Shown piece by piece: positions 10,936-64,000 of a DNA stretch of 64,000 nt; position 1 is the first letter of the stretch, and every line of letters starts with the position of its first letter. This DNA is from Malacoraja senta (taxonomy: Eukaryota). The notes under the pieces are model-generated. The model worked only from the letters and a program-made list of their open reading frames with translations. It had not been told where the DNA came from and searched no databases. The stretch spans positions 9,178,001 through 9,242,000 of the forward strand of contig CM075992.1 of the NCBI GenBank assembly GCA_038087875.1, read 5' to 3'. Made by a program: the position numbers and the translations under genes.

Positions 10936-10968
10936 TTAGAAGGAACTGCAGATGCTGGAAAGATTGAA

Positions 10969-12957: not shown

Positions 12958-13702
12958 GCCGATTAGGAAAAGGGGAGATGCAACGAGACCTGGGTGTCAT
13001 GGTACACCAGTCATTGAAAGTAGGAATGCAGGTGCAGCAGGCAGTGAAGAAAGCGAATGGTATGTCAGCATTCATAGCAAAAGGATTTGAGTATAAGAGC
13101 AGGGAGGTTCTACTGCAGTTGTACAGGGTCTTGGTGAGACCACACCTGGAGTATTGTGTACAGTTTTGGTCTCCTAATCTGAGGAAAGACATTCTTGCCA
13201 TAGAGGGAGTACAGAGAAGGTTCACCAGACTGATTCCTGGGATGGCAGGACTTTCATATGAGGAAAGACTGGATAGACTCGGCTTGTACTCGTTGGAATT
13301 CAGAAGACTGAGGGGGGATCTTATAGAAACTTACAAAATTCTTAAGGGGTTGGACAGGCTAGATGCAGGAAGATTATTCCCGATGTTGGGGAAGTCCAGA
13401 ACTAGATGTCACAGTTTAAGGATAAGAGGGAAGACTTTTAGGACCGAGATGAGGAAATCATTTTTTACACAGAGAGTGGTGAATATGTGGAATTCTCTGC
13501 CACAGAAGGTAGTTGAGGCCAGTTCATTGGCTATATTTAAGAGGGAGTTAGATGTGGCCCTTGTGGCTAAAGGGATCAGGGGGTAAGGAGAGAAGGCAGG
13601 GATGGGATACTGAGTTGGATGATCAGCCATGATCATATCAAATGGCGGTGCAGGCTCGAAGGGCCGAATGGCCTACTCCTGCACCTATTTTCTATGTTTC
13701 TA
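12958..13702 (+). mobile_element. CR1/HER1-type LINE 3' fragment (young)
   Basis: ORF 12978-13586 nearly identical to the C-terminal part of ORF 46196-47134; TTCTATGT tail. Confidence 0.9.
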
Positions 13703-16502: not shown

Positions 16503-16965
16503 TCTTTAGGGGAGTAAATAAATAATCTATACATTATTTGTGACTGGAAATGGGTAGTGCAGGAAGCCATTTTACTATGCACTATGCTAAAACAATACAA
16601 CTGCCCCACCTTTGTTTTCTCTTTTTTAATATTGCAAACTCTAATCTGAAGCAATTTCCAAAGCTACAATTTATTTTACAAATGTTAGAAGAGGCAAACC
16701 TGCCAACACAATGTCCATCATATAAATTCATGTTGAGTATTAATTAAATATAGCTGTAAGATTGAGAAACTAGATCACAGAAGAGTGCACGTTCTTCCAT
16801 TTTATGGTCCAAAGCAGAACTACTGGTTTGCAGAAAAAACTGTAAAGTCACAGCAAACCAAGTGGCCACAAAGGAATTTACTTACTACACCAAGCTCTTC
16901 AAAAAAAGGAGAAAATACAAGATGAATACTGACTTTGCACAGCATCTTCTGCTGTAAGATATGAC

Positions 16966-17160
16966 TTAGACTTCTGGCTGTGAACACATGTCCTTGTAGA
17001 CTGTAGCCATGGCATTGCATGTCTGTTTAAGTTCAGACTCTAAACATCTGATTCTATCCAGGATAGTCAACAGCTCCTGCAGTGTGTCCTCAATCAACTT
17101 ATTCTCACTGCTGTAGATTTCAAACAAGCCTTCTTCTAGCTTCGTGGAGAATTCTGAAAC
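16966..17160 (-). CDS. SYCE2: Synaptonemal complex central element protein 2, last coding exon
   Basis: VSEFSTKLEEGLFEIYSSENKLIEDTLQELLTILDRIRCLESELKQTCNAMATVYKDMCSQPEV* resembles mammalian SYCE2 (VSDLTEKLEERIYQIY...LETELKQVCHSVETVYKDLCLQPE); acceptor TTTTAAG, phase 0. Confidence 0.85.
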   Translation of the reverse strand, partial: VSEFSTKLEEGLFEIYSSENKLIEDTLQELLTILDRIRCLESELKQTCNAMATVYKDMCSQPEV

Positions 17161-17202
17161 CTTAAAAGTCACAAAAGATTAAATGGCTTTGTCCCAATTT
17201 TA

Positions 17203-17596
17203 AGTAAGTAAGTAAGTTTATTGGCCAAGTATTCACATACAAGGAATTTGCCTTGGTGCTCCACCCACAAGTAACAACATGACATACAGTGACAGTTACG
17301 AATGACTCGGAAAACACTAAACATTAATAATAATAAAACATTAATGTTAAAACACCATTTATCAAGCATGTGAACCAACAAAATACCAGATCAAAGGGAG
17401 GCTACAGATTTTTGGCTGTTGAGTAGAGCAACTACTCTTGGATAAAAAACATTTTTATGTCTGGCTGTGGCAGCTTTGACAATCCGGAGTCGCCTTCCAG
17501 AGGGAAGTGATTCAAAGAGTTTGTGGCCAGGGTGAGAGGGGTCAGAGATGATCTTGCCCGCTCGCTTCCTGGCCCTTGCAGTGTACAGTTCATCAA
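17203..17596 (-). mobile_element. Rex/Babar-type LINE 3' end with (CTTA)n tail, intronic in SYCE2
   Basis: ORF 17391-17609 (LYTARARKRAGKIISDPSHPGHKLFESLPSGRRLR); TAAG repeats at the left end. Confidence 0.8.
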
Positions 17597-18857
17597 TCTC
17601 TGTTCTCACATCGCTTGCCCTTTCTAGGCTATCGTGTGCATGGTGCTTGCAGTCAGTCCCCAGTTCTCCTTACCCAAGTGGTCCATTGCCCACCTTGTTA
17701 GAGAGTGAACACACATCATCAAGACTCATTCAAATTGCGTTTTAAGATGCGGGATTGAAACACTTGACAACCATCAGAATACAGTCTGAATAGAATAGAG
17801 TCTGAAGAAGGGTTCGGCCCGAAACGTTGCCTATTTCCTTCGCTCCATAGATGCTGCTGCACCCGCTGAGTTTCTCCAGCATTTTTGTGTACCTTCGATT
17901 TTCCAGCATCTGCAGTTCCTTCTTAAACACAAACATCAGATGCTGGTTTAAAGCGGAGATACACACACACAAAGCTGGAGTAACTCAGCAGGTCAGACAG
18001 CATCTCTGGAGAAAAGGAATAGGTGACGTTTCGGGACGAGGCAGTCTGAAGGCGGGTCTCGATCCGAAATGTCACCTATTCCTTTTCTCCAGAGATGCTG
18101 TCTGACCTGCTGAGTTACTCCAGCTTTATGTGCCTATCTACAGATTAAGGTGATATTTATTTCCCTTGCAGCACTGAGAAATACCGAGTCCAACTGTGGC
18201 ATGTCACCAAATTCTGCATCCTCTGGAAACGAGATGAATGTATAAAATCATGAGGGGGGATAGGGTAAATGGTGTATTAAATCATTTGGGTGAATGTGCA
18301 GTCTTTTATCCAAGGTAGGGGAAATCGAGAACTAGAGGACTTAGGTTAAAGGTGACAGTGGCAGGTTTAGTAGGAACCCGAGAGGCAATTTTTTACACTC
18401 AGAGGGTCGTGGGTTTATGGAATGAGCTGCCAGAGGAGGTAGTTGAGGCAGATACTATGGTAGCATTTAAAAGACAGTTGGACTAGTATATGGATACGAT
18501 AGGTTTGGAGGGATATGGGCCAAACGTGGGCAAATGGGACTAGCTTAGCTGGGGCATCTTGCATGGGATGGACAAGTTGGGCCAAAGGGCTATTTCTCTG
18601 CTGTATGACACTATGAAAGAAGAATGCTCCCTCCACACATCCAATTAGGTAAGTGATTGTGTATGAGATTTCATTTGTCAAACCTTTGTTGAACTTGACA
18701 CTCACAAGGAACAGCTAAAGATTTCCATGAAGAAAGTCCTGTGAATGAGATAATTCCCTCGACTCACAAACACTTAAACACTTTCACACAAAAACCTGCT
18801 ATACATAAATTATAGGTTTTCAACATTCAGTTGTTTATAGGAAAGATGCATAATTAC

Positions 18858-19077
18858 CTTCATAACGAGAGTGTCCTTAAAGTTGCTCATCAACTTATGA
18901 TCTTTTATTCTACTTTTATTTATTTCGTTCACTAGCTGTTTTGTTCTTTCACATATCCCGTCTACACTAGAATCAGGTCCCACAAAACAGTTTGAGGGCT
19001 TGCCATTGAAGTCAAGTGTGGAATCTTCAATATCAGAGGTTGTCATGGCATCATCCATTAAGCTGCTAGATTCCTCT
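18858..19077 (-). CDS. SYCE2: SYCE2 internal coding exon (220 nt, phase 2 to phase 0)
   Basis: ...DSSVDGICERTKQLVNEINKSRIKDHKLMSNFKDTLVMK resembles SYCE2 (DSSIDILQKRAQELIENINKSRQKDHALMTNFRNSLKTK); acceptor TTTTTTCATTCCCTTGCAACAG, donor AAG|GTAATT. Confidence 0.85.
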
Positions 19078-20140
19078 CTGTTGCAAGGGAATGAAAAAAC
19101 AGAATCAATAGACAATAGACGCAGGAGTAGGCCATTTGGCCCTTCGAGCCAGCACCGCCATTCAATGTGATCATGGCTGATCATCCCCACTCAGTTCCCC
19201 GTTCCTGCCTTCTCCCCATATTCCCTGACCGCTATTTTTAAGAGCCCTATCTAGTTCTCTCTTGAAAGCATCCAGAGAACCTGCCTCCACCGCCCTGAGG
19301 CAGAGAATTCCACAGAATCAGACCGTTGGGAGACCATAGATAGACACAAAAAGCTGGAGTAACTCAGCGGGTCAGGCAGCATCTCTGGAGAAAAGGAATA
19401 GGTGACGTTTCGGGTCGAGACCCTTCTTCAGGTGACCATGGTATCATAGGTGACCATGATACTGATAGTCAAGTCATTTCTTAAACAGAGGTGCAGTGCC
19501 ACAACTAGATACACTGACAGATCTAGATCTTTTAAAGGAAGAAACACAACCTTCTTTATTTCTTGTTCACCGTCGGTGCAAGAAATAAACCAGAGAGAAC
19601 CCTGTAAAATGTAACGAGAACCCCATATAGGTTGTAGTACACTTTCAAGGGTGAGCGTAAGCAACAGAGATTGTTGTGCACATTGGTACCCATGACATGG
19701 AAACAAAAGGGATGACATTCTGAGGAATGAATATAGGTTGAATATATGGGTTATGAATGTATTTAATTTTCTTGTTTATTATATGTTATCTCTAAGTATT
19801 GTGTTTACAGGCCTGTTCTGCTGCTGCTAGTAAGAATTTCATTCGTGTATATATGGCAGTTCAACACTCTTGAGTTTGGAAAGAAGTTAGAAAGCAGGAC
19901 CTGGAGGGCGGTAATCTCTGGATTACTTCCATTGCCGTGTGCTAGTGAAGGCAGAAATACAAGGATAAGGCAGAGGAATGTGTGGCTGAGAAGCTGGTGT
20001 GGGGGAGCAGCGGTTATTGTTCTTAGATCATTGGCATCTCTTACAGGGCAGAAGTAATCTACAGGAGGCATGTGTTGAATCTGAACTGGAAGGGGCACCA
20101 ATATTTTAGGAGGAAGATTTGTAGCGCTCCTCAGGAGAGT

Positions 20141-20441
20141 TTAGTTTAGAGATACATCACGGAACCAGGCCCTTCGGCCCGCCAAGTCTGTGCCGACCAG
20201 CGATCACCTGTCCACTAGGACTATCCTACACCCTAGGGACAATTTACGGTTTACATCTTACAGTTTTTACCAAAGCCAATTAAACTAAAATCCTGTGCGT
20301 CTTTGTGGAGTGTGGGAGAAACCCCATGCGGTCACAGTGGAAACATATAAACTCCGTACACACAGCACCTGTAGTCAGGATCGAACCCGGGTCTCTGGTG
20401 TTGTAAGGTGGCAACTCTCCCGCTGAGCCACTGTGCCGCCC
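20141..20441 (-). mobile_element. HE1/V-SINE-like element
   Basis: Reverse complement of the SINE head and body, with (CTAAA)n tail. Confidence 0.75.
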
Positions 20442-20574
20442 TAAACTAGATTGGTAGGGGGATGGGTCCAAGGACAGAAAAGGGGAAGGTGAAAAGTTGT
20501 GGACAAGTACTGTAGTTAAAGAGAGCAAGTTTAGTACACAGGACAGCCAGGAGAAGGGCGAAGAGAAAGAGAAG

Positions 20575-22440
20575 ACTGGAGGTTTAAACTGCATGTGTTT
20601 CAAGGCAAGAGACTTAACAGTTCAAGCAGACAAACTCAGGGTGTGGATTAGCTCAGGAGACTGAGATATTACAGCCATTACAGAAACATGGCTGCAAGAA
20701 GGGCAGATCTGACAGCTCAATGTTCCAGGGTATTTCAGAGGGAACTTAGTTCCAGGGGGAACTTACAGAATAATGAATGGCATAGATAGAGTGGATGTGG
20801 AAAGGGTGTTTCCACTGGTAGGAGAGTCTAGGACCAGAGGTCACAGCCTCAGAATTAAAGGACGCTCTTTTAGAAAGGAGGTGAGGAGGAACTTTAGTCA
20901 GAGGGTAGTTAATCTGTGGAACTCATTGCCACATAGGTCTGTGGAGGCCAAGTCAATAGATATTTTTAAGGCAGAGATAGCCAAATTCTTGATTGGAACG
21001 TGTGTCAAGGGTTATGGGGAGAAGGGATTAGGAGGCAGAGATCAGTCATGATTGAATGGCAGAATAGACTCGATGGGCCGAATGGCCTAATTCTACTCCT
21101 ATAACTTGTGAACTTGGTATAGACAAAAGTACAAGTAAAGGGTATGAGTTTTTTTGATGAGGGGGAAACTTAACAACGGTGCTTAGAGAGGATATTCTTG
21201 GGGGTTCGTCCAGTTAGTATAGATAGCATTTTGAAACAAGAAGGGGATGATCACTGCGATAGGACTATTATGTGCCTCCCTATATTCAGTGAGAATTAGT
21301 GGAGTTGATGTGCCAAGAGATCGCAGAGAGTTGCAACAATAATAGGGTAGTGTTAAGGGGAGATTTTAACTTCCCTAATATTGACTGGGTCACCCCCCCC
21401 CCCCCCCCCACGCGAAGGGTTTGGATGGGGAGGAATTAGTCAAATATGTTTAAGAAAGCTTCCTTGATAAATATATGGTGGCCCCCACTAGAGAGGGGCC
21501 CATCATGTATTGTGGACCTTTCCTCAGGTGGACAGTGGGCCTTCTCTCAGGGAAAGAGGTAGGGCAAGTGACTGAAGTGTCAGTGGGGGGATCACTTTGG
21601 GACCAGTGCCAATCATTTTTGTTTACTATAAGAAAGACATCGTTAAGCTGGAAAGAGTGCAAAGATTTGCAGGAATGTTGCCAGCACACAAGGACATGAG
21701 TTATAGGGCGAGTTTGAGCTGGCTAAGGCTTTATTCACTGGAGCATAGGAGACTGAGGCATGATCCTAGAGAGGTGTATAGAATCATGTGGGGCAGAGAT
21801 AATGTGAATGTAGTCTTTTTCCTGGAGTAGGGGAATCAAGAACTAGAGGGTCATAAGGTTATACGGAATAGGAGTAGAATTAGACCATTCGGCCCATCAA
21901 GTCTACTCCGCCATTCAATCATGGCTGATCTATCCCTCCCTCCTAACTCCATTCTCCTGCCTTCTCACCATAACCTCAAACACCTGTACTAATCAAGAAT
22001 CTATCTATCTCTGCCTTAAAAATATCCACTCACTTGACCTCCACAGCCTTCTGTGGCAAAGAATTCCACAGATTCACCACCCACTGACTAAAGAAATGTT
22101 TCCTCATCTCCTTCCTAAAAGAACGTCCTTTAATTTTGAGGGCATAGGTTTCAGGTGAAGGCGGAAAGATTTAATAGGGAACTGAGGGGCAACTTTTTCA
22201 CACAGAGGATAGTGGTATATGGAAGGAACCAGCAGCGGAATTGGTTGAGACAGGTACAATAACAACATTTAAAAGACTTGGACAAGTACATGGATAGGAT
22301 AGGTATATGGATAGAAAAGGGTTGGAGGGATATCAGCCTAATGCAAGCAAATGGGACTATCTTAGATGGGCATCTAGGTCAGTATGCATGAGTGGGGCTG
22401 AAGAGCCTGATTCTGTACTGTATTTCTCCATGACTCTATA
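20575..22440 (+). mobile_element. Cluster of degraded, nested CR1-type LINE fragments
   Basis: Endonuclease-like (AITETWLQEGQ, GDFNFPNIDW) and RT C-terminal pieces (ORFs 20773-21051, 21597-21830); an inverted piece at about 21855-22135. Confidence 0.7.
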
Positions 22441-24962
22441 GCCAACTATAAATACAGTGAGGGGATTACATGTGATAGCAAGAGCTGCATTGTGAGTGAG
22501 AGTGTATGAACTGGTTCTGTTTGGTTGATGCTATCTCAATATATACTATCTATATATTACCTGGATAATTCTATCCATATAAAGGATTTTTTAACATGTT
22601 TTCAACACAGATGACATTCCATTCAGGGGAATTGCTGAATGCCTTGAACAAATAATACGAATGGGTGTTTCACATGCTATTGTGTTGCTGAGATTGGATA
22701 AATCAACAACATGCTAATCTGTGATGGAGAACCACAAAGATGATCATACTATCAAGAGGCAAGAGCATTTTATTGTCATATGTCCCGGATGGGACAATGA
22801 AATTCTTACTTGCTGCAACACAACAGAATATGTGAATATGTAAACATAGTACATAACAGGGGAAGAGATTTAAAAAAAAAGAAAAAGTTCAATAAATATC
22901 AAATATAGTGCAATAATAATAGTCTAATATGGATACCGTTTCTTGAATTTCTACAATTTGTCTTCTGCTCGCAAGAGATTTTCTGGATTGATTAAAATTG
23001 GCACTTTCCCTTCTTCACATAAAAGACCAGCTGGGTGCGAGACTGAAGAATAAAACAGGTCAGCTTTCGACTGATTCCAGCAGGTTCTTGGCAGAAGCCA
23101 GCTGGTGATGTTAGAGTAGGCACATGATGTAAAGGCTGCACACTGGAATTTAAGGAATAGCTCTCTCTGGGATGGTGCATTATCCTGGCAAGATAGAATT
23201 TTGCAGCACAATAAAACATTTAGCCCAAGTGCTCTAAGCCAGCGTTTATGCTCCTCACAAGCAGTCTCACTTTGGTTCATTTAGATTTGTCAGCACAGCC
23301 TTTCTCTCTTTTTCTCTCTTTAATGCAAGGTTACGACCTCCATTAAGGTAGTAATGGAATTCCTTATCAAACATGTTAAGCATTACTATAATAATTGTCA
23401 GGAAGCATTTATTTTGCCAGAATATTGTTTATTTATCAGAATTCTAGGTCGTACTAGTTAAAGAAAATAAATACCTTGTACATAAATCATACCTAGGTAC
23501 GAAGTGCTTCAAACTTCAAATGACCTGGGGGCAAAAATATCCAGCACTTTGCCAAACTTTAAAAGTAAGTGCTATCTTTTTTTAAAATCCAGTGTGCAGG
23601 GGGATGGAAGATGAATGTGTGAATGCAAAAGGAAAGAACAGGGGCCAGATGCTGCAAAGCCACAGGGAGGTTCTGCTATACCGAAGACTAGCATAGATGG
23701 GCTTATGGTTCATTTCACCTCACTTGCCATGACCTGCGTGGGTTTTCTCCGAGATCTTCGGTTTCCTCCCACATTCCAGTCATACAGGTTTGCTGGTTAA
23801 TTGGCTTGGTATGCAAAACAATTTAAATTGTCCGTAGTATGGGTAGGATAGTGTTAATGTGCGGGGATCGGACTAGGTGGGCTGTATCTCAAAGCAAAAT
23901 TCAAAAGGGCACCTTGTTCAAAAAATAATCTAAATGAAAATCTAATCCAGAGTTGCAAGAAGCCAAACAATGAATAAATAATTGTCAATTTGATAAATAC
24001 TCCCCCATGAAAGTGCCGGACCTAGAATGGGTCAGAGCAAGGACAGAATGAGTGGAAGATTTGAAACCAAGAGGCCCACTTGGATTGGAATTAGGAGCAC
24101 GCTATGCGAGTCATGAAGATGTGGTCTGGGATTTCAGCTGGGAACTAGATGGAAGTGGAGAGGGGCAATTGTGTAAGAGGAAGCAATCTGACCTTGGGAT
24201 TGAGCAGTGAAAGTACCTTCTCATCCCCAAGTTTAATAGAAAATATTTCACCAGGAGCATGAGATGAATGGGAACTGGTTAGTTTCAAATAGTGGGATGA
24301 ACATTTTACAATAGAACAGGACAACACAGGAACAGGCCCTTCGCCACACAATGTCTGTGTCAAAAGTGATGCCAATTTAAAAAACTAATTTCCTCTATCT
24401 GCATGTGATCCTTCCTCCATTCCCTGTATATCCATGTGCCTATCTAAAAGCCTCTTCAACACCACTATCATTCACCACCTCTGACAATGGGATCCAAGCA
24501 CCCACTACTCTCTGTGTAAAAACGAGCCCAACAAACCACCTTTAAACTTTCCCCTCTCTCACCGTAAAACTATGTCTCCAGTCTTTGATGAAAGGATTAA
24601 AGACAAAAAAATCATTATGCTGAGCCAATTGAGCGCTTTTGGTTATTTACTGAAAATAAAGGATGCTTCTCTTATTAAAATTTAGATTATATTTGAACAA
24701 TACAAGTTGAATCAATTAATTAATACAATGAATTCATCTATGTTGTTCCTTGCAAGCTAGGAAAAATGGCCACTTCCCAAATTGAGAACTGAGGTTACAA
24801 TGCAGGAATATGCAATATGCTAAAATCCTTTGGAGCTAGTATTGTATTTCTCTATAACTAACTATAAATACAGTGAGGGGATTACATGTGATAGTAAGAG
24901 CTGCATTGTGAATGAAAGTGTATGAACTGGTTCTGTTTGGTTGATACCATCTCAAAACATTG

Positions 24963-47226: not shown

Positions 47227-47457
47227 AATATGAAACAGACAAATATGGGAGTTTTCCAAGGTATCCCATCAAAATTTTATCCATAATCAACAAAACCAAA
47301 GATCTGATTAATCCAGTTATTCTCGCCTTGCAGTTTTTTGGTGCTTGTGCCATATTTGCTATAGTTATAACATGAACTTCAGTTCAAAGTGCACTTGAGG
47401 TGGCAGAGGTGCGCAGCTAATGAAACTGTTGCCTCACAGCCCCTGAGACCTGCGTTC

Positions 47458-47997
47458 TCCCTCTCAACCCCCTCCCTCTCTACCCCCTCCCTCTCTACCC
47501 CCTTCCTCTCCAGCCCCCTCCCTCTCCACCCCCCTCCCTCTCTTCCCCCTCCCTCTCTACCCCCTCCCTCTCTACCTCCCTCCCTCTCTACCCCCTCCCT
47601 CTCTACCCCCTCCCTCTCTACCCCCCTCCCTCTCTACCCCCTTCCTCTCCAACCCCCTCCCTCTCCACCCCCTCCCTCTCTCCCCCCTGCCTCTCTCTAC
47701 CCCCCCCTCTCTCTACCCCCTCCCTCTCTACCCCCTCCCTCTCTACCCCCTCCCTCTCTACCCCCTCCCTCTCTACCCCCTCCCTCTCTACCCCCCTCCC
47801 TCTCTATCCCCCTCCCTCTCTACCCCCTCCCTCTATACCCCCCTCCCACTTTACCCGCCCTCCCTCTCAACCCCCCTCCCTCTCTACCACCCCTCCCTCT
47901 CTACCCCCCTCCCTCTCTACCCCCCTCTCTCTTTACACCCTCCCTCACTACCCCCCTCCCTCTCTACCCCACTCCCTCTCTACCACCCCTCCCTCTC
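47458..47997 (+). repeat. Polypyrimidine/polypurine minisatellite, ~(CCCCCTCCCTCTCTA)n
   Basis: About 540 bp of degenerate 15-mer units. Confidence 0.9.
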
Positions 47998-48199
47998 TAG
48001 GGATTGAAGAGGGAGGGTGAAGAGGAGGAGGAGGGAGTGCTGGGGGATGAGGAGAAATGAGCCGCGCCTGCGCAGTTGGGGGCTATGCGTGAGTGGTGCA
48101 AAATTGCGTTGGGGGAACGGGTGAGTGGTGGAATCTTGCATTGGGGAGCAGACCCAATCGGTCTAGTAGGCTTATAAATTGCAGATGGCATTTGCACTG

Positions 48200-50737: not shown

Positions 50738-51576
50738 CTCTCTTCAGGTAGGTCCCAACCTGAAACATTGCCTACCCGTGTTATCCAGAGATGCTGCCTG
50801 ACTTGCTGAATTACCTGCATCATAACAAATTTTCCTTGCCTCTGAAGGACACAAAGTGCTGGAGTAACTCGGCGGGTCAGGCAGCATCTCTGGAGAACAT
50901 GGATAGGTGGCGTTTCTGGTCGGGACCCTTCTTTAGATTCCTTGCCTTTCTCTAATCCTTTACCATTTAACTTATCTTCAACTGGAAATATTTTCTCCTA
51001 TTTTGCTTATGAAAGCACTTCATGATCCTTATTAAATCTCCCGATGTCCTTTGCGTTCTCAGCATGACGCAATACTGCAGAATCACTTCAAACAACCGTT
51101 AATTTCCGTTTGATTTTTCCTTTTGGGAAGCAATAGAACAAGCAATAGTGGAACCAGAGGAAAAATAATTATAAAAGTCAAACGGAAGTGAGTATTATTA
51201 TTGATCAGTAAAGACATCCCAGAATCAGAGCGTCAAGAGAGAAGGTTGCTAAGGAACTGACAACAAAGTCATGTGTGATGCGGCTCTTTCCTTTGCGCAT
51301 CAGCAGATACCTTGGGTAGATTCTAATTTTGAGTCTTTTAGCTGGTGTGATTGGAAGTGGCAGGAAGAGGCGTTAAAACATAATGTTCAGCATCCTGTAA
51401 ACAGGGGAGGTTAAGTCATTTCCTCCCCTCCCCCTCTTCACCCCTGTAGTCCAAACAAGTGACAAAAGGACTAAGCTTCATTGTGATGCCCCTGGTCCAT
51501 CAAGCTGCCAGCACTCACTGTTCAGGTGTGCACATGAAGGTTTGTGTCAACTGTAAGCCAACTATCACCTGTGGCA

Positions 51577-53283
51577 ATGGAGGACGAGACGGCGCCAGCA
51601 CCGGTGGAAGGTGAGGAGGAGACAACAGCACCTGACGAAGGGGCAGCTCCTGAGGAACCAGCAAAGGAGGACGCAGAACCAGAGGCAGAACCAGAGGCCG
51701 AACCAGAGGCCGAAGCAGAGGCCGAACCAGAGGCCGAACCAGAGGCAGAACCAGAGGCAGAACCAGAGGCAGAACCAGAGGCAGCACCAGAGGCAGAACC
51801 AGAGGCAGCACCAGAGGAAGAACCAGAGGAGGCTCCAGCAGAACCAGAGGCAGCACCGGAAGAAACAGCACGCGCAGAATCACCAAAAGATGAGGCAGCA
51901 GCTGTGGAATCACCGAAAGCGGCAACACCTACAGAATCACCAAAAGCGGTGGCAACTCCTCCGGGATCACCCAAGGCAGAATCACCGCAAAAGGAGGCCA
52001 CGCCTGCAGCGTCACCGAAAAAGGCCACGCCAGCAGAGTCACCGAAAAAGGAGGCCACGCCTGCAGAGTCACCGAAAAAGGTGGCCACACCTGCAGCGTC
52101 ACCTAAAGAGACAGGAACACGTGCAGAGTCACCGCAAGAACTAACACGTGCAGAGTCACCAAAAGAAGCAACGCGTGCAGAGACACCAGAGGAAGCGGCG
52201 GCGCGTGCTGAGTCACCAAAAGAGGCACCGACAGAAGAGGCAGCTCGTGCAGGGTCACCAAAAGAGGAGAAAGCGCCAGAGGAAGCAGCAAAAGAGGAGA
52301 AAGCGCCAGAGGAAACAGCAAAAGAGGAGAAAGCGCCAGAGGAAGCAGCAAAAGGGGAAGAGGAGCAAACTTGTCAAAAACCAGACAAGCCACCAGGAGA
52401 GAGCACTGAAGAGAAAGCAAAGGCAGCAGATGAGGCCAAAGAAGATAAAGCAGCAGCAGAAGGAGGCACCTGTGCCAAACCCAAACCGGAAGAGGGCACT
52501 GGTGAAAAAGGAGCCGCTGATGATAAAGCAGCAGCAGCAGCAGCAGCAGAAGGAGGCACCTGTGCCAAACCTAAACCAGAAGAGAGCACTGGTGAAAAAG
52601 GAGGCACAGATGATAAAGCAGCAGCAGCAGCAGCAGGAGGAGGAGGCACCTGTGCCAAACCTAAACCGGAAGAGAGCACCGGTGAAAAAGGAGGCAAAGA
52701 TGATAAAGCAGCAGCAGCAGCAGCAGGAGGCCCCTGCAGAAAATCTAAACCAGAAGAGAGCGCTGGTGAAAAACCAAAACCAGCAGAAGGTATCTGTGGA
52801 AAATCAGCAAAAGATAGCGCTGATACAAAATCAAAGGAGGCAGAAACAAAACAAACAGAAGAGAGTGACAAAGCAAAGCCAACAAAAGTATGCGTTCCTT
52901 GTGCTAAAGCAGCAGCAGCTGTGGGTCCTGGCTGTAAATTCAACCCACCAGTAGATAGCCCCTCCAACAATGCTGAGTTGGCACCAGTCAGCTCCTCTAC
53001 AAACAAAGATGTTACTCCTTGCACAAAACCAAAAGAGGCAGAACCCTGTGGCTGTAAATTCAAATCACCATTAGAAGCCACTAAAACCTCTGAAACATCA
53101 GTTCCAACCTCTGCAAGATCAAAATCGAGCAAATGCTGGGGAAGTGATCAGCGAACAGAGATCTGTGGTTGTGGAAGGCCAAAGCCAGCTGGAGCCAAAA
53201 CCTGTGGAAGTCCACCCAAAGTCATCTGTGGCTGTAAAGACCCCAAAACAGGAGGCAAAACCTCTGGGAAATCAAAGCAATAA
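51577..53283 (+). CDS. Uncharacterised 568-aa low-complexity protein (acidic EPEA repeats, SPK/TP repeats, Cys/Lys-rich C-terminus), single coding exon
   Basis: 1.7-kb stop-free ORF; GCAATGG Kozak; all repeat-length changes preserve frame; upstream acceptor CCCCTGTAG at 51449; AATAAA at 53990. Confidence 0.7.
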   Translation: MEDETAPAPVEGEEETTAPDEGAAPEEPAKEDAEPEAEPEAEPEAEAEAEPEAEPEAEPEAEPEAEPEAAPEAEPEAAPEEEPEEAPAEPEAAPEETARAESPKDEAAAVESPKAATPTESPKAVATPPGSPKAESPQKEATPAASPKKATPAESPKKEATPAESPKKVATPAASPKETGTRAESPQELTRAESPKEATRAETPEEAAARAESPKEAPTEEAARAGSPKEEKAPEEAAKEEKAPEETAKEEKAPEEAAKGEEEQTCQKPDKPPGESTEEKAKAADEAKEDKAAAEGGTCAKPKPEEGTGEKGAADDKAAAAAAAEGGTCAKPKPEESTGEKGGTDDKAAAAAAGGGGTCAKPKPEESTGEKGGKDDKAAAAAAGGPCRKSKPEESAGEKPKPAEGICGKSAKDSADTKSKEAETKQTEESDKAKPTKVCVPCAKAAAAVGPGCKFNPPVDSPSNNAELAPVSSSTNKDVTPCTKPKEAEPCGCKFKSPLEATKTSETSVPTSARSKSSKCWGSDQRTEICGCGRPKPAGAKTCGSPPKVICGCKDPKTGGKTSGKSKQ

Positions 53284-55309
53284 GCAGCAGGATTGTCTTC
53301 CCAATGAACTGGTAAAGTTGCAACCCAGCTTCTTTCTGACATAGACGTACAGCACAAAACAACCCCTAAAGGATGGATAACTGCTATGAAAAACCATTTT
53401 CGCAACATGGGGCTGAGCAGGGATTCTTCTCTTCATTTAACAACTGAGCTGAGAGTATGTGGCACTAATATTAAATCACAGAGATGTTCCTTTCCCCAAA
53501 CCTTGAAATAGAAATAACTTCTTACCAACTCACCAGAACCATAAGCCCACCAAAAATCAACAACAAATGTCCATTGATTAATGGAAGAAAGTCCTGAATG
53601 TTTTAATATTGAGTCTGTAGAAAACTGTGCAGTAAGTGGGGAGAGATGCACCTAAATACCTGAGCACCCGTGATATAGCCTGCATTAGGGTATCTACGGG
53701 AACAAGAGATGTGAGGTTAGGGTGGGCGTAGAATATCATAGATTCTGAAACAGTTACCAGTCCCAAAACCAGAACACACACACATCTTCCTTTACTGAAT
53801 TACACATGATTTCATCTTATCATTAACACAAACCTGCCTCAATACTTCAACAGTATCCACACTAAGAGAATCAATGTCACTGTTTTTATATAAATTCCTT
53901 TTTTTCCACCGAAAGCACTAAACCTGGCTCATATCTCAGATAACCATGGAAAGGAGATGTTAAACGCGAAGGGAAAAGGTAAACATAGGAATAAACAACT
54001 ATCCGTCCATTTTGAAACTTGCTTCATCTCACACACATCCCATTAATTAGTGAATTAATTTGCTTTCATTGCAATTTTAATACTCATCTGATGGAACTGT
54101 GAACTTTCTCCCCTATTCGAGCATTGCAATGTCAGCACCAAGTACTCTCTGGTCAGACATGGTGCACGTGAGCAAAGTAATAGAAAATCTAGAAACAGAA
54201 GTAGGCCAATAAACCAATTGCATTAAGTTCAGCAACTCAATGCAATCCTATTTCATCTGAATCCTCACATCATCTACCTGCACTGGTTCCATATGCATTA
54301 GTATCCTTACAGATTAAGACTTCTTCAGCAACTGCGTTAATCTCAACCTTCCCATCATGTGTGACATTTAATTCTATTGACAGCATCATTATGATTGGAA
54401 AGTCTAGAATGCATCCAGTTCAGGCAGAGGGCTGCCAGATGTAAAGTAAAGCTCCTTTTCTCTGCATCAAATCTACTCAAAATTGTTTCAAATTAAGAAC
54501 ACTCAACCCATTCTCATTGAATACCATTGTCTCGTTTTTACAACTCGATACTTAAATTAGGCTCATTGGCACAATCTCAAAAAATCCTTGTCAAAAAAAC
54601 ATGTCATTTTTCATTTCTTACTGCCATTTTTCTTGGACAGAAACCTTAGACAAACATACATGAACATTGTTAGCACATTTGCAAAGTAAGCAACAGCAAA
54701 ATCAGTTTGGTCGAGCATAAGACTAGAACATAAGACTTCAGTTCCTTCTGGGCACTGTTCCCCATCTCTTAAAGATGTCAGAAACAAGACCATTGTTGCT
54801 AACTGTGATTATGTTTGAAGAGTACCACCGCTGATCATGGTGCATGATAACAACTTCATGGCAAGTAATCATTCAAAACACAGCCTTGAATACGATAGCA
54901 ATAAAGAAATGAGTTTTGGCTCGGACTCTGTGTGTCTTGCTGTACTTTTTTTTAAGGGACTTTTGTCAACTGCTGTAATCAACAAAGCAAGTACAGGTAA
55001 TAAACAACACTATTAAATTAGTTAAGCTTAAGTTAAACCACTGTGGTCAAAAGAACACAAGAAACAGTAGGCCAATCAATCCATCAAGCCTACTTCACCA
55101 TCATTAAGATCATGGGTGATTCAAATCACATTTCCTGCTCTCTTCCCATTCCCCTCACACTCCTCTTTTAACCACATGTCTATTAGATTATACCAGGAGC
55201 CCTCAGCAAGTCTCGCGACTAAAACACACAGGATATTCTCACAAATGTCATTTCCTGTGTCAAAAATTAAGATATGATCAATGAAAGGAAAGAAAACAAC
55301 TTGATTTAC

Positions 55310-55780
55310 TGTTTAGTTTATTGTCAAATGTACCGAGGTACAGTGAAAAGCTTTTGTTGCGTGCTAACCAGTCAGTGGAGAGACAATACATGATTACAAT
55401 CGAGCCATTTACAGTGTATAGATACATGATAAGGGAATAACGCTTAGTGCAAAGTAAAGCCAGCTAACTCCAATCAAGGATAGTCCGTGGTTACCAACGA
55501 GGTAGATAGTAGTTCAGGACTGCTCTGTGGTTGTGGTAGGATGATTCAGTTGCCTGATAACAGCTGGGAAGAAACTCACTGAATTTGGAGGTGTGCGTTT
55601 TCACACTTCTCTCCCTTTTGCCTGATGGGAGAGGGGAGAAGAGGGAGTGGCCAGGGTGCAACTCGTCCTTAATTATGCTACTGGCCTTGTCGAGGCAGCG
55701 TGAGGTATGAATAGAGTCAATGGAAGGAGTTTGGTTTGTGTGATGGTCTGGGCTACATCCACAATTCGCTGCAATTTCTT
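55310..55780 (-). mobile_element. Rex/Babar-type LINE 3' fragment
   Basis: PSIDSIHTSRCLDKASSIIKDELHPGHSLFSPLPSGKR in ORF 55491-55904, plus 3' UTR. Confidence 0.75.
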
Positions 55781-57431
55781 GACAAAAAAATGTCCCTTTA
55801 TGGTAAGTCATAAGAACAGGACAAGTGAAAACAGATTCAAATAGTGAAAGAAGATTTAAGGGAAAAAGCGAGAAGAAATTCTTCACACATAGTGGACCCA
55901 ACACAGAGAATATACTTCTGAGTTGCGCACGGGAGCCAGAAACCAGAGAGACATAAATGGCAGTGTGTATGGCAGGCGGTTACAGGAACTGCAGACCTTT
56001 GCTATGTCGATAAGTCATGAAGGCTGATTTTTCTCTCTTCCTAATCTTGTACTCAGTAAGTCAATGGCCGAGGAAATTGAACATTTTACCTGTTTATCAA
56101 GAATTCCAATATGATAGTGCAACATTGTTATAACTTTTCATTACTATTTTCTTCATGCCTAATCTTTGGTATTTTAACATGTCAGGTGCTACATCCAGCA
56201 TGCATAACTTTGGTCAGGTGCTCTGACTATTTGAATTGAGTTTAGTTTATTGTCACGTGTACCAAGGTACAGTGAAGAGCATTTGTTGTATGCTAACCGG
56301 TCAGCGGAAAGGCAATACATGATTACAATCGATCCATCCTCATTATACAGATACACGAGTAGAGATTTAAAAGAGTGGAGCGATTGTAATAAGTGATTAC
56401 AGATAATTCCTTAGATATACTCAATTATCACCATGATGTAGAAACACAGGAAAAAAGTTCTGGAGCTAAGAGATGTAATTTCTTCTTGGGAAAGAGAAAT
56501 GTAGAGACAATTTAATCATAGGCTCTTAAAATTATGTTTGGGTTGTGCAGCATGGATAGGAAAAGAATGCCATGGAATGTGTTGTGTATTTGGATGCTTG
56601 GAACAGACTTTAATAAGGCTTGGACACGGGAGTAAACTAACAAGCTTCTTTATTCCAGGACGCCACCTTGAGACTCCCCCGCGCATGCGTACTTGCACCA
56701 CATCACAAGACATCACATATACTAATTACATATGCTAATTATATCACATACCTAACACTCCTCCCCCTTTAACTTGGAGGCAGGTAATACCATTTCTATT
56801 ACATACCTAACACTCCTCCCCCTTTAACTTGGAGGCAGGTAACACCATTTCTATTACACCGCACTCCACTTTTAACTCAATTTCACCTGCATGGTATATG
56901 CTCTTTATCTACATATCATTGATAATACACTGTTGCACATTGGTATTATTACTTAAACCAAATACATTACACCATGCTTTATGTGTTATCATTTTCTGGT
57001 TCATGTATTTGCTTTGTTTTCCTCTTTGTAGGTGGGATCTGACCCATGGCTGCAAGTTTTCGTTTTCTAGCAGCTTCCTCTGTTCAATTTCCATTCTCTG
57101 CTTATTTATCTGCTCTTGTTGTTTCATGAGATTCTGCAATGCATACCATTTGTCCATTGCTCAGTGAAGGAGGCTCCATGCTGGACTATAGTGAAGTGTC
57201 CTAATCGCAATCGGTCCTGCATACTTTTGTCTTGACCGACAAGCCTCTCTTCTTTAGACTTTTCTATTAGCAGCTTTCTACTCATTGTCACACATTTGTC
57301 TAACCTTTCTTTGTATCATTTAAGCCTTTTCTGTTGTTCATCTATTTGTCTTCTTAAGTCACCTTTCTGGTCTTCATCAAGAAGTAGGATCTATATTGTC
57401 TTTGCAATACAATACTGGCTTTGATTTGTGC

Positions 57432-58660
57432 TCAGTTTAGTTTTCTTGCTTCATAAGGAAGGTAGTGAGAGTGCACTACAATTGTTGTATAATTCAGTTT
57501 GAGGAAGTCTTTCCTATATCGTTTAAGCCTTTGGTATCGTTTCAGCCTTTTCTGTTGTTCATTTATTGGTCCACTTAAGTCACATCTCTGGTTCTTCATC
57601 ACGAAGTAAGATCTATATTGTCTTTGCAATACAACAGTGGCTTTGATTTGTGCTCTGTATAGTTTTCTTGTTTTATAAGCACGGTAGTGAGATTGCACTA
57701 CAACTGCTGTATAATTCAGTTTGAGGAAGTCTTTCCTATATCGTTTAAGCCTTTTGTATCGTTTCAGCCTTTTCTGTTGTGCCTCTATTTGTCTTCTTAA
57801 GTCTTTCCTATACCAACTCATACGGAGTACTGACTGAACTTTTACAGTAGCTCTCTTTTGCTTAACCCACTGCCTAATCACCATACTCTTGTAGGCAGCC
57901 TGAATGGTAATAGTTGCATCCCTCATTGACTGATATTGCACAAACTGGGAACGCCCTATTTTGCATGCTTTGTACCATCTCTGGATCGAAATGACTGCTT
58001 GTTGCATAGCTCTGTAACGTACCCTTAATCGGTAACCACGGTATGCAGCTTGCAGAATGACTACAGCCACCTTTTGCATCAAGAAATGCTTTCTTGTAAT
58101 GCACATCCTTATGAATGACTTAATATGGCGTGCTGCCTTGATTTTCTCAAACAATACTCTGGTTTTGATCCCGCGGTATAACGCCTGAATACAAACCACT
58201 GCTTTTCTCAAACTATTATAATGTCTCACTTGGACATTTCTTATCTGGCATGCTCTGTATCGTTGCTGTACCGCAATGGCAGACCAGCGTAGTTTCTTGA
58301 AATACTGACGCTGTTTATGCATCTGATAATAAGTCTGTATGACCTTGGCAGATTTGTGCATGCACCGCAATTGCTTTCGAACAAGCATTCCTCGGTAGGC
58401 AGCCTGAAGCAGCACAACGCTGCTGCGTACCTTCATGTAAGTTTTGCGATCACTTTCCATTTGAAGGTGTGCCCTATAATGGGTTTGTACTATTATAGCT
58501 GCCAATCTCATTGCCTTGTATTGACAGTATACTCTGTGCATTCTAAATGCTGCTTGTATTACCATTGCTGCCTTCTGTTTGTTCCGGATCTCTCTCCATA
58601 GCTTCATACCCCTGAATTCAGCTTGAATAGCTAGGGTTGCCCTCTGGATGGCAATGTCCC
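57432..58660 (-). CDS. ASPM: IQ-repeat block derived from abnormal spindle-like microcephaly-associated protein, inside the LTR element
   Basis: About 14 IQ motifs (IQAEFRG, IQAAFRM, VQTHYRA, LQAAYRG, IQTYYQM, VQQRYRA, IQALYRG...) with 23-23-27 residue spacing, the higher-order repeat typical of ASPM; a fragment, not the ASPM locus. Confidence 0.85.
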
Positions 58661-59232
58661 TTTGCATTTGACTTCTGTCCTTTTGCACTTGACCTTTGTC
58701 TCTTTGCACTTGACCTTTTTTCTTTTGCACTTGACCTTTGCACTTGACCTTTGTCCCTTTGCACTTGATATTTGTCCTTTTGCACTTGACCTTTGTCCTT
58801 TTGTACTTGACTTTTGTCCTTTTGCACTTGACCTTTGTCCTTTTGCACTTGACCTTTGTCCTTTTGCACTTGACCTTTGTCCTTTTGCACTTGACTTTTG
58901 TCACTTTGCACTTGACTTTTGTCCTTTGAGGTACTACCTGCACTCTTTAGTTCAGGCTCCTTGCCTCTGGATGCCCTTGGAGGTTTTGGTGAGAAATGAG
59001 CCATTAATGCCTCCTTACACTCCTTGTACATTTTATCCGTGGGCTTTGCTGGCCGCAGCAACATATGTAAGGTGTGATAATCGTCTCTTCCTAAGACTAA
59101 TATGAACCATGCTCTCTTCTTCTCCTCTGCAGTGATATCAATGGAAATGAACGAAACCAAGACTTCAGTCCATTTCTCAAAATTGCACCCAGAATCTAAC
59201 TGGGGCAACTTTCCTACCATTTGAATAGCCAT
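58618..59232 (-). CDS. Gypsy/Mag-type Gag N-terminal domain followed by repeat linker
   Basis: AGCATGG start; MAIQMVGKLPQLD...WTEVL...EEKKRAWFILVLGRDDYHTLHMLLRPAKPTDKMYKECKEALMAHFSPKP follows the typical Mag-clade Gag N-terminal pattern. Confidence 0.75.
   Translation of the reverse strand: MAIQMVGKLPQLDSGCNFEKWTEVLVSFISIDITAEEKKRAWFILVLGRDDYHTLHMLLRPAKPTDKMYKECKEALMAHFSPKPPRASRGKEPELKSAGSTSKDKSQVQSDKSQVQKDKGQVQKDKGQVQKDKGQVQKDKSQVQKDKGQVQKDKYQVQRDKGQVQRSSAKEKRSSAKRQRSSAKGQKSNAKGHCHPEGNPSYSS
58670..58928 (-). repeat. 21-nt tandem repeat (CAAAGGTCAAGTGCAAAAGGA)n encoding (KDKGQVQ)n
   Basis: About 12 units; one unit near 58725-58750 is only 13 nt long. Confidence 0.9.
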
Positions 59233-61056
59233 GCTACCTGTTGCTATTCAGGTGCACTATATTCTGTTCTCTCACTGTGTGAAAAAACCAACTGCGGCAA
59301 TCTCCTGTACAGACAAAACACTGATTACCCCAAGATGAGAAAACACAAATCTCCTGTACAGACAAAACACTGACTTCTCCAGGATAAGAAAATACAGTTC
59401 TGTATTAATTAGCTTTAGAAAAAAATCACTGTCTATTACTTAATCTTATAATAGATTTATACTAATAACCCACATTTCATGTTAATAGCCCAACTAGAAC
59501 ATTTTAAACCATATTCCTTCAGAATGCATTACAGGGCTTTTATTGCGACGGATTTCACCGGTCCAGCTTTTATTCTGATGGATTTCACCGCTCCAGCTTG
59601 TCGGCCTGTGAACTCTGGTGCATCCTCGACCTCTCGAGCTGTCCCCACCGGTACCTTTGCTGCTGCTTTTGCTGGCTCTCCTCGGGCCTCACCGTTACTT
59701 TTAAACTCTGTCTCGGATTCTCCGGACCTCCGATGTTGCTGCTGGCTCAGCCGTTGCTGTTGCCTCCGCTGGCTCGCTGCCAAGTCGACTCCCGCTGCCC
59801 CGCTGACTTGCCTGCTGTCTCCCGTGGACATCCTGTGGAAGGTAAGTTGCTGCTGCCGGTCCCCGCTGCTCCAAGCGTTGGGACTGTGCCCCGCCGTCGG
59901 GGGCTGGCTACGCCCTGTGCCCCGCTTCTCTCTCTCGTGGTCGGCTTTCTCCACTCTCGGCCTTCTCCCACGACCGGGGTTTCTCCACTCTCGGCCGTCT
60001 CCCGCGACCGGGCTTTCTCCACTCTCGACCTTCTCCCGCGACCGGGCTTTCTCCGCTTTCTTCCCCGACCGGGCTGAATCTGCTCCCGACCGGGCTGAAG
60101 TGCTTGAGTGCTGTGTCCTGCTTCTCTTGCGCGGACCCACTCTTCGCTTGGGGCCGGACTTCCTCTCACGTCCGGGCTTTCCCCGCTCTCGACCGTCTCT
60201 TGCGACCGGGCTTTCTCGGCTTCTCTCGCGGGCCTGTCCGCTTTTCCACTCACGGTCGGGCTGACTCTGCTCCCGACCGGGCTTTCTCTGCTTTCTCCCC
60301 CGGGCTGACTGTTCCCGGCCGGGCTGAAGACTCAGCTTCTGTCGGTGGCTTCTCTGGACCTGTCCGTGGCCTTCACGGTACGAGGCCTTCATCCGACGTC
60401 TGTGGCTGCTGCTTGGGCCTGGCTGTGGGCTGCACAGCCCTGGATACATTCCAGGTAAGTTGACACCGTCGCTCCTAGCTTCCAGCTGTGCTCGGTGACC
60501 CTTACTGCCTTGCTTGTCTTCACTGCACTCTTCCCGTTCCGACCTTTTTTTTCTTTTTAGCGCCAATTCAAAACCATTTGCCGCCAAATCTTTTTGCTTG
60601 GTGCTGTTCCACTTTGTTTTCAAATACAACCTCTATTTTTAACTTGTTTTCATTTTTCTTGGCTGTCCTTGTTCTTATCTTCTTCGTTCTTTTATCCTCG
60701 TCGCCAATTGTTGTGTATTTGGATGCTTGGAACAGACTTTAATAAGGCTCGGACACGGGAGTAAACTAACAAGCTTCTTTATTCCAGGACGCCACCTTGA
60801 GACTCCCCCGCACATGCGTACTTGCACCACATCACAAGACATCACATATACTAATTACATATGCTAATTATATCACATACCTAACAGAATGTGTGAAGGT
60901 CCAAAACTCGTATCCTTAAGTACAAGATGGTTAATTGTCATGTAGAACATTAGGCAGCAATGTGTATACTCAAAGTGGTGAGAATAAGGAACTTGTTACC
61001 TAATAAATTGGTTGAGCCAAAAACGTAGATCTTTTCATTATAAAATTATCAAATAC

Positions 61057-64000
61057 ATTTTTTTTTTAATTTTTTAATTTTTATTTATTAGAAGTACATT
61101 ACATTAGAACTACATACATTAGTACTCGTCACATATATCTTCGTACAATTAATGTACTCCGTTTGTTTTTTACACTAGTAAAGGGAAAGGATGAAATTGA
61201 GAGAAAGAAGAAAGTGAAGGAAAAAGTGAATGTGTAGAAAACATGACAACAAGAAAGAACGAAGACCCTATAAGAACAAAATTAAAAACAAAAGAAAAAG
61301 AGTTAAGAAATAGACCCTAGAAAAGAAGAAGAAAGAGAAAGAGGGAAAAGAGAAAAACAAATAGTTTTTGTAAGCATCACGCAAATGGGACATACCAACT
61401 CTCCAACTTTCATCCCCCCTTACCTGACCTCAGTTTGTTTTTTTAAGGTACTTTTGCACCCTATATTTGTAATAATTCTATAAATGCAGACCACGTCAGG
61501 TGGAAGTGATCTGGTTTACCTGCCAGGAGGAGTCTTATCTCTTCTAGGTGTAATGTTTCGAACATATTTGAAATCCACATGTTTATAGCTGGTATTGGAG
61601 CCTGTTTCCAAAATTTTAGGATTAGCTTTTTTCCAGTTATTAACCCATAGTCTATTAGTTTCTTTTGGAACACATTTAGTTCTGGACCATCTTCCGTTAT
61701 TCTGAAGATAATCCATTCTGCTTTGGGTATCAGTTTTATTTTAAATAATTTTGTAAAGATTTCAAAATTTTCAATCCAAAATTTTTGAATTTTTGTACAG
61801 AAAACAAATGAGTGCGCTGTAGTAGCTTCTTGGGATTGACATTTATCACAAATGGATGATACATTGGGGAACATTTTATGGATTTTAGTTTTGGAATAAT
61901 ATAATCTAAGTAAGATTTTAAATTGTATTAAAATGTGTCTTGCATTAATCGAACATTTATGCACGTTTAATAAGTGTTCATTCCACCTTTCCTTTGAGAT
62001 TTTAATAGCTAATTCTTGTTCCCAGTCTCTTCTGATACCCTCCGTAGATGGTATTTCTACATTTAAGATAATATTATACAAATATGATATTAAGTTTGCT
62101 GATTCAGCTTTTATCTGCATTGCATCATCCAATACATCTGCTGGGCTATTATAATGATCTTTTGTATATTTTTTCAAATAGTCGCATATTTGAAAATATT
62201 TAAGATATTGATTATTTACGAGTTTATATTTTATTTGTAATTGTTGAAATGAAAGTAATTTTCCAGTTTCATACAAGTCACCGAACGTTTTAATTCCTAG
62301 TCTATCCCAGTGTGTGAAAGATTTATCTATAATAGAGGGATTAAACGAAGGGTTATTAACTATGGGAGATAAAAAGTGATAGATTTCATAATTTTAAATT
62401 TTGTTTTATTTGTTTCCAAATTCGGATTGTGCTATGTATAATTGGGTTCTTATTATAATTTATGTTATTCAGTTTCATTGGTGAGAGGAGGATCGCTCCA
62501 ATGTTTCCAGAGGAGCAATCCTCTCTCCATTACAATCCAGTCCACTTGCTGGGCAGAGTTATCCATCAGTTGAATCATATTTTTAATATTTACTGACCAA
62601 TAATAATACATGAAATTAGGTAATGCTAAATCCCCTAATACTTTAGGTTTATTCAAGTGAGTTTTTTGTATTCTATGTGATTTATAGTCCCATATAAAAT
62701 TAGTGATTTCTGAGTCCAGTTTTTTTTTAAACTTCTTTGGTAAGTATATAGGAATCAATTGGAATAGGTATAAAATTTGTGGTAGAAAGATCATTTTTAT
62801 TGCATTTATTCGGCCTATTAAAGACATCGGGAGCGTTTTCCAAAATTTAATTAGTGTGTTTAATTTATTAAGGAGGGGATCAAAATTTGCTTTAAACATA
62901 CCTTGATATGTTCTAGTAATTTCGATTCCCAAGTATTTGAATTTTTCTGTAGCTATTTTAAAAGGGAATTTTAAAAGATGTGTTGAATCTTTCGGTTTTA
63001 TTGACATAATTTCACTTTTATTCCAATTTATTCTGTATCCAGAAAAAGATCCAAAGTCTTCAATTAAATTTAATATATTTGGTATAGTAATTTGAGGTTT
63101 TGTAATGTACAGTAATATATCATCCGCGTATAAAGATATTTTATTATTTGAATCTTTAGTATTATACCCATGGATATCAGGGTGTATTCTAATTTTTTCT
63201 GCTAACGGTTCAATAATAAGAGCAAACAACTGTGGTGATAATGAGCATCCTTGTCTATTTCCCCTTGATAGTTGAAATTTCGAGGATAATATGTTATTAG
63301 TTAGTATTCTAGCTGTAGGTTTATTATATAATAATTTAATCCATAGAATAAAATTCTCTCCCAGTTGGAATTTTTGTAATACTTTATCCATATAATTCCA
63401 TTCTACTTGGTCAAATGCTTTTTCAGCATCCAACGAAATAATTGATAATTCTTGTTCTTCAGATTTGTGTGAGTGCATTATGTTGAGTAAACGTCTCATA
63501 TTGTTAGATGAGTATCTCTTAGGGATAAACCCCGTCTGATCTGGGTTTATTAGTTTACTAATATATTTACTTAATCTTCTAGCTAATGTTTTTGCTAATA
63601 TTTTTTGATCTGTGTTTAACAATGCTATAGCTCTATATGAACCCAGTTCTTATATATCTTTGTCTTTCTTAAGTATTAGTGTAATCGTTGATTCCGCTAA
63701 TGTATCAGGTAGTATTTGTTTTTTAAAAGCATATTGGTACATTTTTTGTAATCTTGGTATAATTTTGTCATAGAAGCTTTTATAAAATTCATTAGTAAAT
63801 CCATCAGGACCTGGTGTTTTTCCATTCTTTAGTGAGTTTATTGTATCTTCTAATTCCTTAATTGAGATTTGTGCACCCAATTCCTCTTGTTCCTTCAACT
63901 CTAACTTTGGAAGATTACAATTATCCAAAAACTCTGTGATTTTATTGGAGTCAGTTGTCGTTTTAGATGTATACAAATTCTCATAAAATTGCGCAAATCT
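61057..64000 (-). mobile_element. L1-clade LINE, ORF2 RT and C-terminal region (frameshifted), 3' UTR and A-rich tail; runs off the window
   Basis: GKTPGPDGFTNEFYK, LNTDQKILAK, DQTGFIPKR, SLDAEKAFDQVEW, RGNRQGCSLSP, SLYADD, CDKC...H...C motif; T-rich tract at 61057-61088. Confidence 0.92.

Follow-up and report, generated by a model that had tools for sequence, protein, structure and literature searches.

The window, the whole 64,000-nucleotide stretch of DNA analysed here, contains a young 4.3-kb insertion of a non-autonomous Ty3/Gypsy LTR element without pol, in which a truncated Gag is followed by captured pieces of two host genes, ASPM and TLK (tousled-like kinase). On balance (probability about 0.55) we read it as a recent insertion of a high-copy element with two captured pieces, in which selection at the level of the element has favoured an open frame. 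The element comprises the following features:

56575-56579, left copy of the target-site duplication (GAATG)
56580-56757, minus strand, 3' LTR of 178 bp
56758-56770, minus strand, polypurine tract adjoining the 3' LTR, within a 55-nt local duplication (56742-56858)
56988-57360, minus strand, captured TLK cDNA from the coiled-coil region, decayed (one stop, two frameshifts)
57309-57803, minus strand, 222-nt tandem unit in 2.2 copies across the ASPM/TLK junction
57361-58677, minus strand, captured ASPM IQ-repeat segment, stop-free down to 57435
57727-57798, minus strand, 72-nt in-frame TLK-derived insert inside the ASPM piece
58655-58927, minus strand, 21-nt tandem linker encoding Q/K/D/G heptads
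58734-58746, minus strand, single 13-nt short unit that is the frame break of the window copy
58981-59232, minus strand, N-terminal part of a Ty3/Gypsy Gag, limited to the first capsid lobe and equivalent to residues ~1-85 in related Gag-Pol proteins
59233-60693, minus strand, long GC-rich leader with internal repeats and many indels among copies
60694-60706, minus strand, primer-binding-site-like tract starting with TGG, 2 nt past the 5' LTR, which we take to match the 3' end of tRNA-Ser
60709-60886, minus strand, 5' LTR
60887-60891, right copy of the target-site duplication (GAATG)

Two LTRs of 178 bp each enclose the region; they have TG...CA ends and differ at two positions (176/178 identical). 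The LTR pair and the 5-bp target-site duplication are features of the Ty3/Gypsy LTR class, and the primer-binding-site-like and polypurine tracts fit such an element in position and composition. An autonomous Ty3/Gypsy element has complete gag and pol, whereas here Gag similarity stopped near residue 85. With seven Gag or Gag-Pol relatives as queries, no pol match was obtained in the element at E<0.05. Pfam detected no reverse transcriptase in the element ORFs scanned, and Rfam gave nothing within 54000-64000. The LTR was also scanned for bacterial promoters, a test irrelevant to such a sequence, with no hits.

A 367-aa stop-free stretch in the leader was rejected as coding, as it had no Pfam match and showed 1-nt indels among copies. 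The leader (1476 nt) contains 11 upstream ATGs, its last 240 nt being free of them, and a splice-acceptor-like CAG (59233-59245, minus strand) lies 5 nt ahead of the Gag ATG. The fusion mRNA may be spliced within the leader. Two strong splice-donor-like sites were seen by eye on the antisense strand of the leader (59839-59846 and 60452-60459, plus strand) and could supply antisense or host read-through transcripts.

The Gag-like N-terminus is read from an ATG at 59232 on the minus strand. Its first ~85 residues matched 267 relatives at E<=0.001, including several Gag-Pol proteins with protease, reverse transcriptase, RNase H and integrase in Gypsy order. The N-termini of two Gag-Pol proteins (P0132 and P0145, both PR-RT-RH-IN) matched at E ~1e-4 in the library search, and a pairwise comparison of P0132 with the element gave 1.6e-10. 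Near 59156 the lobe is one codon shorter than in its relatives. Pfam on the Gag lobe itself gave no match; a PNMA Pfam domain was present in 11 of 67 aligned Gag relatives. Searching the PDB with a Gag profile retrieved PNMA2 alone, at E 0.3, and Foldseek on the lobe returned nothing at E<=0.001. When the Gag part was compared with 358-2000-aa proteins, 0 of 46 candidates matched, which is weak evidence. The structure predicted for the lobe has four helices (pLDDT 81), and in a search with this model capsid lobes of retroelements or retroviruses filled all of the top 33 rows of structural neighbours (Copia, Arc, PEG10, PNMA2), with Z scores up to 8.1, a middling value for a helical domain. The element keeps just the first Gag capsid lobe, the remaining gag and all of pol having been replaced by the ASPM and TLK pieces.

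According to the original prediction, the Gag frame reads KDKGQVQ-type heptads up to a 13-nt short unit near 58725-58750, after which the same GQVQ reading continues in the frame of the IQ block. Both points held. The short unit was located at 58746-58734, and the reading beyond it lies in a frame that crosses the IQ block without a stop until 57432-57434; the 59232-57432 span is 1801 nt, as calculated at the time. The Gag frame itself ends at 58618-58620 after 204 aa. We delimited 11 repeat units, ten of 21 nt and one of 13 nt, and the 21-nt repeat is beyond chance (TRF score 280-371). The linker probably grew by amplification of the junction sequence, as judged from one contig, because the 21 nt at the ASPM edge, the first of the ASPM-side sequence, share 17 of 21 positions with the linker unit.

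The single ORF of ~600 aa that had been proposed did not survive as a property of the family: the figure is specific to the window copy, in which the stop at 57432 sits in the degenerate last copy of the 222-nt unit. This last unit also contains a 1-nt slip near 57365, and the stop is a lesion, not the natural 3' end. None of the contigs listed ran across the linker. Two of four deletion joints across the linker or IQ block were in frame and two were not, the intervening letters being missing for three of them. In our preferred reading the window copy is a dead end, its slippage-prone linker having undergone a slip of its own.

Outside the window, the predicted Gag-N/linker/ASPM-IQ chimera was borne out for the family by a natural, RefSeq-annotated protein. 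The top match of 4084 candidates of 238-758 aa was a 290-aa protein of the little skate Leucoraja erinacea (P0001, XP_055489032.1). In this protein the Gag lobe, about 12 whole heptads and the IQ block follow each other in one frame, without the short unit, and the sequence is identical to the window at 82 of 105 positions in the Gag part and at 90 of 100 in the IQ part. It has the same layout as the window element and differs by its early end, ~100 residues into the IQ block. One frame for lobe, linker and IQ block is shown for this one relative, and we infer it for the founder. The RefSeq name of the protein is 'ASPM homolog isoform X1', in which the Gag N-terminus goes unrecognised. No full-length (~600-aa) fusion was present among the same 4084 candidates of 238-758 aa, and no fusion longer than 290 aa among 77 IQ-block hits.

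The IQ block was recognised by Pfam as IQ (E 2.4e-22). It gave these 77 hits among 2817 candidates, and most of the named ones were ASPM or asp. In the best register it corresponds to residues ~2397-2794 of eel ASPM, with 36% identity and E 5e-94 (next register E 2e-74). Cartilaginous-fish ASPM was not among the IQ-block matches, and the assignment of ASPM as the likely source is by best match, not near-identity. The piece is strongly basic (101 K+R vs 15 D+E) and probably lies, we assume, within one large exon. Reading the sequence as an ASPM ortholog fails: only ~400 of 3343 eel residues correspond, and ASH, CH, the full IQ array and the C-terminal region would be expected.

A 2519-nt contig from run X15 follows the block at ~90% identity without the 72-nt insert and continues for 2.2 kb. 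Because it lacks the insert and runs on beyond the element's remaining length, this contig would represent host ASPM. Two X15 contigs leave the window sequence at 58643 and 58677 and, translated by hand over 30 letters each, then encode IQ-like peptides, not linker. One of these loose ends may be host ASPM and the other a linker-less form of the element with a longer ASPM piece.

The original description of the whole block as ASPM-IQ was correct in its IQ and ASPM match and overlooked a second gene, as the block also has in-frame TLK pieces. Positions 57315-57127 matched human TLK2 (residues 83-140 of the PDB 5O0Y chain) at E 2.5e-26, and the next TLK piece matched 5O0Y residues 139-168 at E 0.0022; Pfam gave no match on the TLK pieces. 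The captured piece lies upstream of the kinase domain and would derive from TLK1 or TLK2. This region of TLK contains coiled coils required for dimerisation (Mortuza et al. 2018, PMC6023931). In the element TLK is joined to ASPM in frame and has decayed distally. Intron-containing, vertebrate-type TLK fragments from the metagenome collection (L001 1307-1900 and L002 2658-3290), which are not skate genes, served as intron references. Two introns of these loci are absent from the element, and because the element is continuous where they have introns, the captured TLK mRNA was spliced.

ASPM/TLK junctions were also found in contigs of organisms A, B and C. Copies from the same organisms carry the 72-nt insert, which is absent from eel ASPM and from the 2.5-kb X15 contig. 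At the edges of this insert 14 letters fit both sides, and a 5-nt word, read by eye, is common to ASPM and TLK at that switch. The supplement of the little-skate genome paper (PMC10115646) contains the labels 'Aspm.1' and 'Tlk2-1.2', whose suffixes may mean several ASPM- and TLK2-like models, a weak lead.

Three sequenced organisms carry the family in high copy number and at dispersed sites. Between 0.31 and 0.39 of the words sampled from 57800-59500 occurred in 14 runs from eight organisms, a share of which part could be host ASPM. Four of 23 listed runs were compared with 57590-61050, and 2157, 2404, 3010 and 106 contigs were placed. In three DNA-like runs summed depth, which is no copy number, averaged 13,000-23,000 across the IQ block and 9,500-11,400 across the Gag part, compared with 107, 0 and 36 in the flank. 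At least 16 contigs continued beyond the LTR edge with dissimilar sequence (agreement 0.41). Copies ranged from >99% down to <90% identity, and 313, 203 and 443 contigs of these three runs fell below 90%. Thousands of contigs per run and discordant flanks at the LTR edges are signs of further rounds of retroposition, as in the retrocopy class discussed below. Our own reading is of hundreds of dispersed copies. Judged by the nearest named protein, the high-copy family most likely belongs to skates or close kin. None of the listed runs is on record as RNA; X15 is merely a guessed RNA run and does not count as evidence of expression.

Such a family could have arisen as follows. Template switching onto co-packaged mRNAs would have supplied the ASPM and TLK pieces, and an autonomous partner would mobilise the element in trans. 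Lineages with an open frame would have propagated better, amounting to selection at the level of the element (about 55-60% in our estimate), with the TLK tail freed from the open-frame constraint. By the simplest route, a long translated frame would stabilise the RNA. By a bolder one, the capsid lobe would co-assemble with helper Gag and the basic IQ tail would hold the element's own RNA; the basic IQ rod may bind RNA or calmodulin. In its strongest form, which we think unlikely, this proposal is that the element rebuilt its Gag: one capsid lobe was kept, and the lost RNA-binding half was replaced by a basic, calmodulin-binding ASPM rod on a self-amplified linker. Such a protein would either join helper capsids, favouring the packaging of its own RNA, or, in dividing germ cells, anchor particles to calmodulin or to spindle sites, which would account for the hundreds of copies across skates.

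That selection acts for the protein had been suggested from the outset. The frame-level signs favour this; the amino-acid-level test on the IQ block does not, and the sole natural fusion found has 290 aa. Five to six rearrangements were all in frame (the 21-nt period, the Gag-to-ASPM frame, the ASPM-to-TLK junction, an 18-nt duplication, the 222-nt unit and the 72-nt insert), for a naive P of 0.004-0.001; these events cannot be counted as independent, and microhomology in frame at the ASPM/TLK switch makes such an outcome likelier beforehand. In 12 of 68 indel rows, 0 of 8 frameshifting indels fell in the coding 47% (P 0.006), where one 3-nt indel was found; short repeats are more frequent in the leader and LTR, so the indel count there is inflated. 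Five lesions were present in the distal 450 nt vs one in the proximal 1798 nt (P 0.007, boundary stop discounted).

Synonymous differences numbered 2 of 14 in the IQ block vs 3.8 expected (P 0.92) and 5 of 12 in the Gag part vs 2.7 expected (P 0.10), for 26 coding differences among 40 of 480 rows that are enriched for changes private to the window copy. At the non-synonymous IQ differences, other copies agreed with eel ASPM in 6 of 12 cases and the window in none, one row beside the 3-nt indel having been dropped from this polarisation. The listed differences show the window copy decaying and say little on master lineages. We consider selection on the frame more probable than its absence; selection on the amino-acid sequence is unproven.

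Alternatively, the element could be a neutral passenger that captured its host pieces in frame by luck and spread by cis signals alone, its ORF surviving via few masters and low substitution rates. This is possible, and we judge it rather unlikely. An in-frame landing is one chance in three, and more with microhomology, and young LTR-mediated retrocopies are usually in frame from youth alone (Tan et al. 2016, PMC5131818). The missing synonymous excess in the IQ block, the truncation of the little-skate fusion and the decay of the TLK tail in a young insertion fit the same account. The probability of no stop in 414 codons is 0.25 if the lineage is only 2% diverged from its source. However, it falls to 0.03 and 0.004 at 5 and 8% neutral divergence, before frameshifts are considered, and the contigs below 90% identity (313, 203 and 443) show that not all copies are young. 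Moreover, the distal tail decayed and the proximal 1.8 kb of the same element did not.

A different explanation concerns the window copy only and is compatible with selection for an open frame in the family: the short unit could be an assembly or consensus error, the locus being really open. Assemblies often err in tandem repeats, and with LTRs identical at 176/178 positions there has been little time for lesions to arise. Against this, several bases were lost, unlike in a homopolymer slip, the unit adjoining the 13-nt unit is likewise degenerate, and the window copy has other private derived changes. An error at this position seems quite improbable to us.

We give little credence to host co-option. 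Under it, one or a few loci would make a Gag-lobe/IQ protein of use to the fish, which might for instance block the helper retrotransposon in dominant-negative fashion, buffer calmodulin or compete with ASPM in dividing germ cells. One locus is annotated by RefSeq as a gene with isoforms, and the capsid-derived host genes Arc, PEG10 and PNMA2 are among the structural neighbours of the lobe. The IQ motifs of human ASPM mediate calmodulin binding, and its IQ region also binds signalling proteins (PMC10502471). However, the family is dispersed and still recently mobile, and the annotated protein forms a single-member cluster for which the searches turned up no ortholog from another species. The original suggestion of a repeat-length on/off switch gained no support and is most improbable. 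Such a switch would choose between a short product with Gag alone and the long fusion; the repeat is prone to slippage and the break falls inside it, but gain or loss of whole 21-nt units keeps the frame, the linker of the little-skate relative is ~12 whole heptads in frame, and depth dips over the short-unit bin in all three DNA-like runs (5,600-7,300 vs 8,000-42,000 in neighbouring bins), a weak hint that the short unit is not a common form.

The element has counterparts among known systems. Animal LTR-mediated retrocopies are described by Tan et al. 2016 (PMC5131818) as products of template switching onto mRNA that are mobilised by a helper. As in the window element, partial mRNA there replaces internal ORFs between two LTRs (PMC5131818); here the ASPM and TLK pieces replace the internal ORFs, and the TLK introns have been lost. 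Also alike are the combination of two parental genes and further non-autonomous moves (PMC5131818). Short shared sequence at switch points, a trait of those retrocopies (PMC5131818), may apply to the window element too, given the letters that fit both sides of the 72-nt insert. In that study re-mobilisation comes down to two retrocopies of flies, each present at more than one site (18 sites, nine retrocopies; PMC5131818). In contrast, the window family is large and dispersed over at least three organisms, with copies >99% to <90% alike, and it has an amplified linker and a host piece in frame with its own Gag start. Maize Bs1 is likewise an LTR element with several host-gene pieces and a chimeric ORF; it differs in being a plant element with three enzyme or pump fragments that is reported as transcribed and translated (review PMC13317346). 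The window element is from a vertebrate and carries pieces of two cell-cycle genes.

In the gag-onc fusions of acutely transforming retroviruses, a truncated gag is likewise in frame with captured, spliced host mRNA, and the viruses are defective and helper-dependent. Those viruses are selected for tumour growth and are not germline families, and the window element differs from them in being of the env-less Gypsy type. Domesticated Gypsy capsid genes such as Arc, PNMA and PEG10 share the capsid-lobe fold of the window element. They are single-copy host genes with both capsid lobes, whereas the window element has one lobe, both LTRs and retained mobility. A domesticated Gag gene, at a single syntenic locus with LTRs and mobility lost, is ruled out for both the window copy and the family by the LTRs and the dispersal. 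The element is a case of LTR-mediated gene capture, a known kind, and is unusual in its copy number, double capture and retained Gag fusion.

No published description of the element was found in the literature searched, and Repbase or Dfam may already catalogue the family; the terms 'LTR' and 'gypsy' are absent from the main text of the little-skate genome paper (PMC10115646). Here a double capture of cell-cycle genes has multiplied into a family that is large and long-lived, was active recently and has Gag fused in frame. Its many copies of different ages make selection of captured host sequence for the benefit of an element directly testable. In practical terms, copies annotated as 'ASPM homolog' can make the ASPM and TLK genes of skates look more numerous and more highly expressed than they are.

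Other parts of the window contain further repeats. Broken ORF2 pieces of a non-LTR retrotransposon (RVT_1 E 2.8e-39, weak zf-RVT) occupy 61461-64000 on the minus strand, 0.6 kb from the 5' LTR. On the plus strand, 51538-53283 is a 581-codon stop-free frame of low complexity (E/A/K/P) with repeats of 12, 15, 30 and 90 nt and a Cys-rich end, for which the protein collection had no exact record. Between 2436 and 50940 a short interspersed repeat family occurs ~18 times, many of its copies being inverted, and 47457-47999 is a C/T-rich tandem array of ~35 copies of a 15-nt unit.
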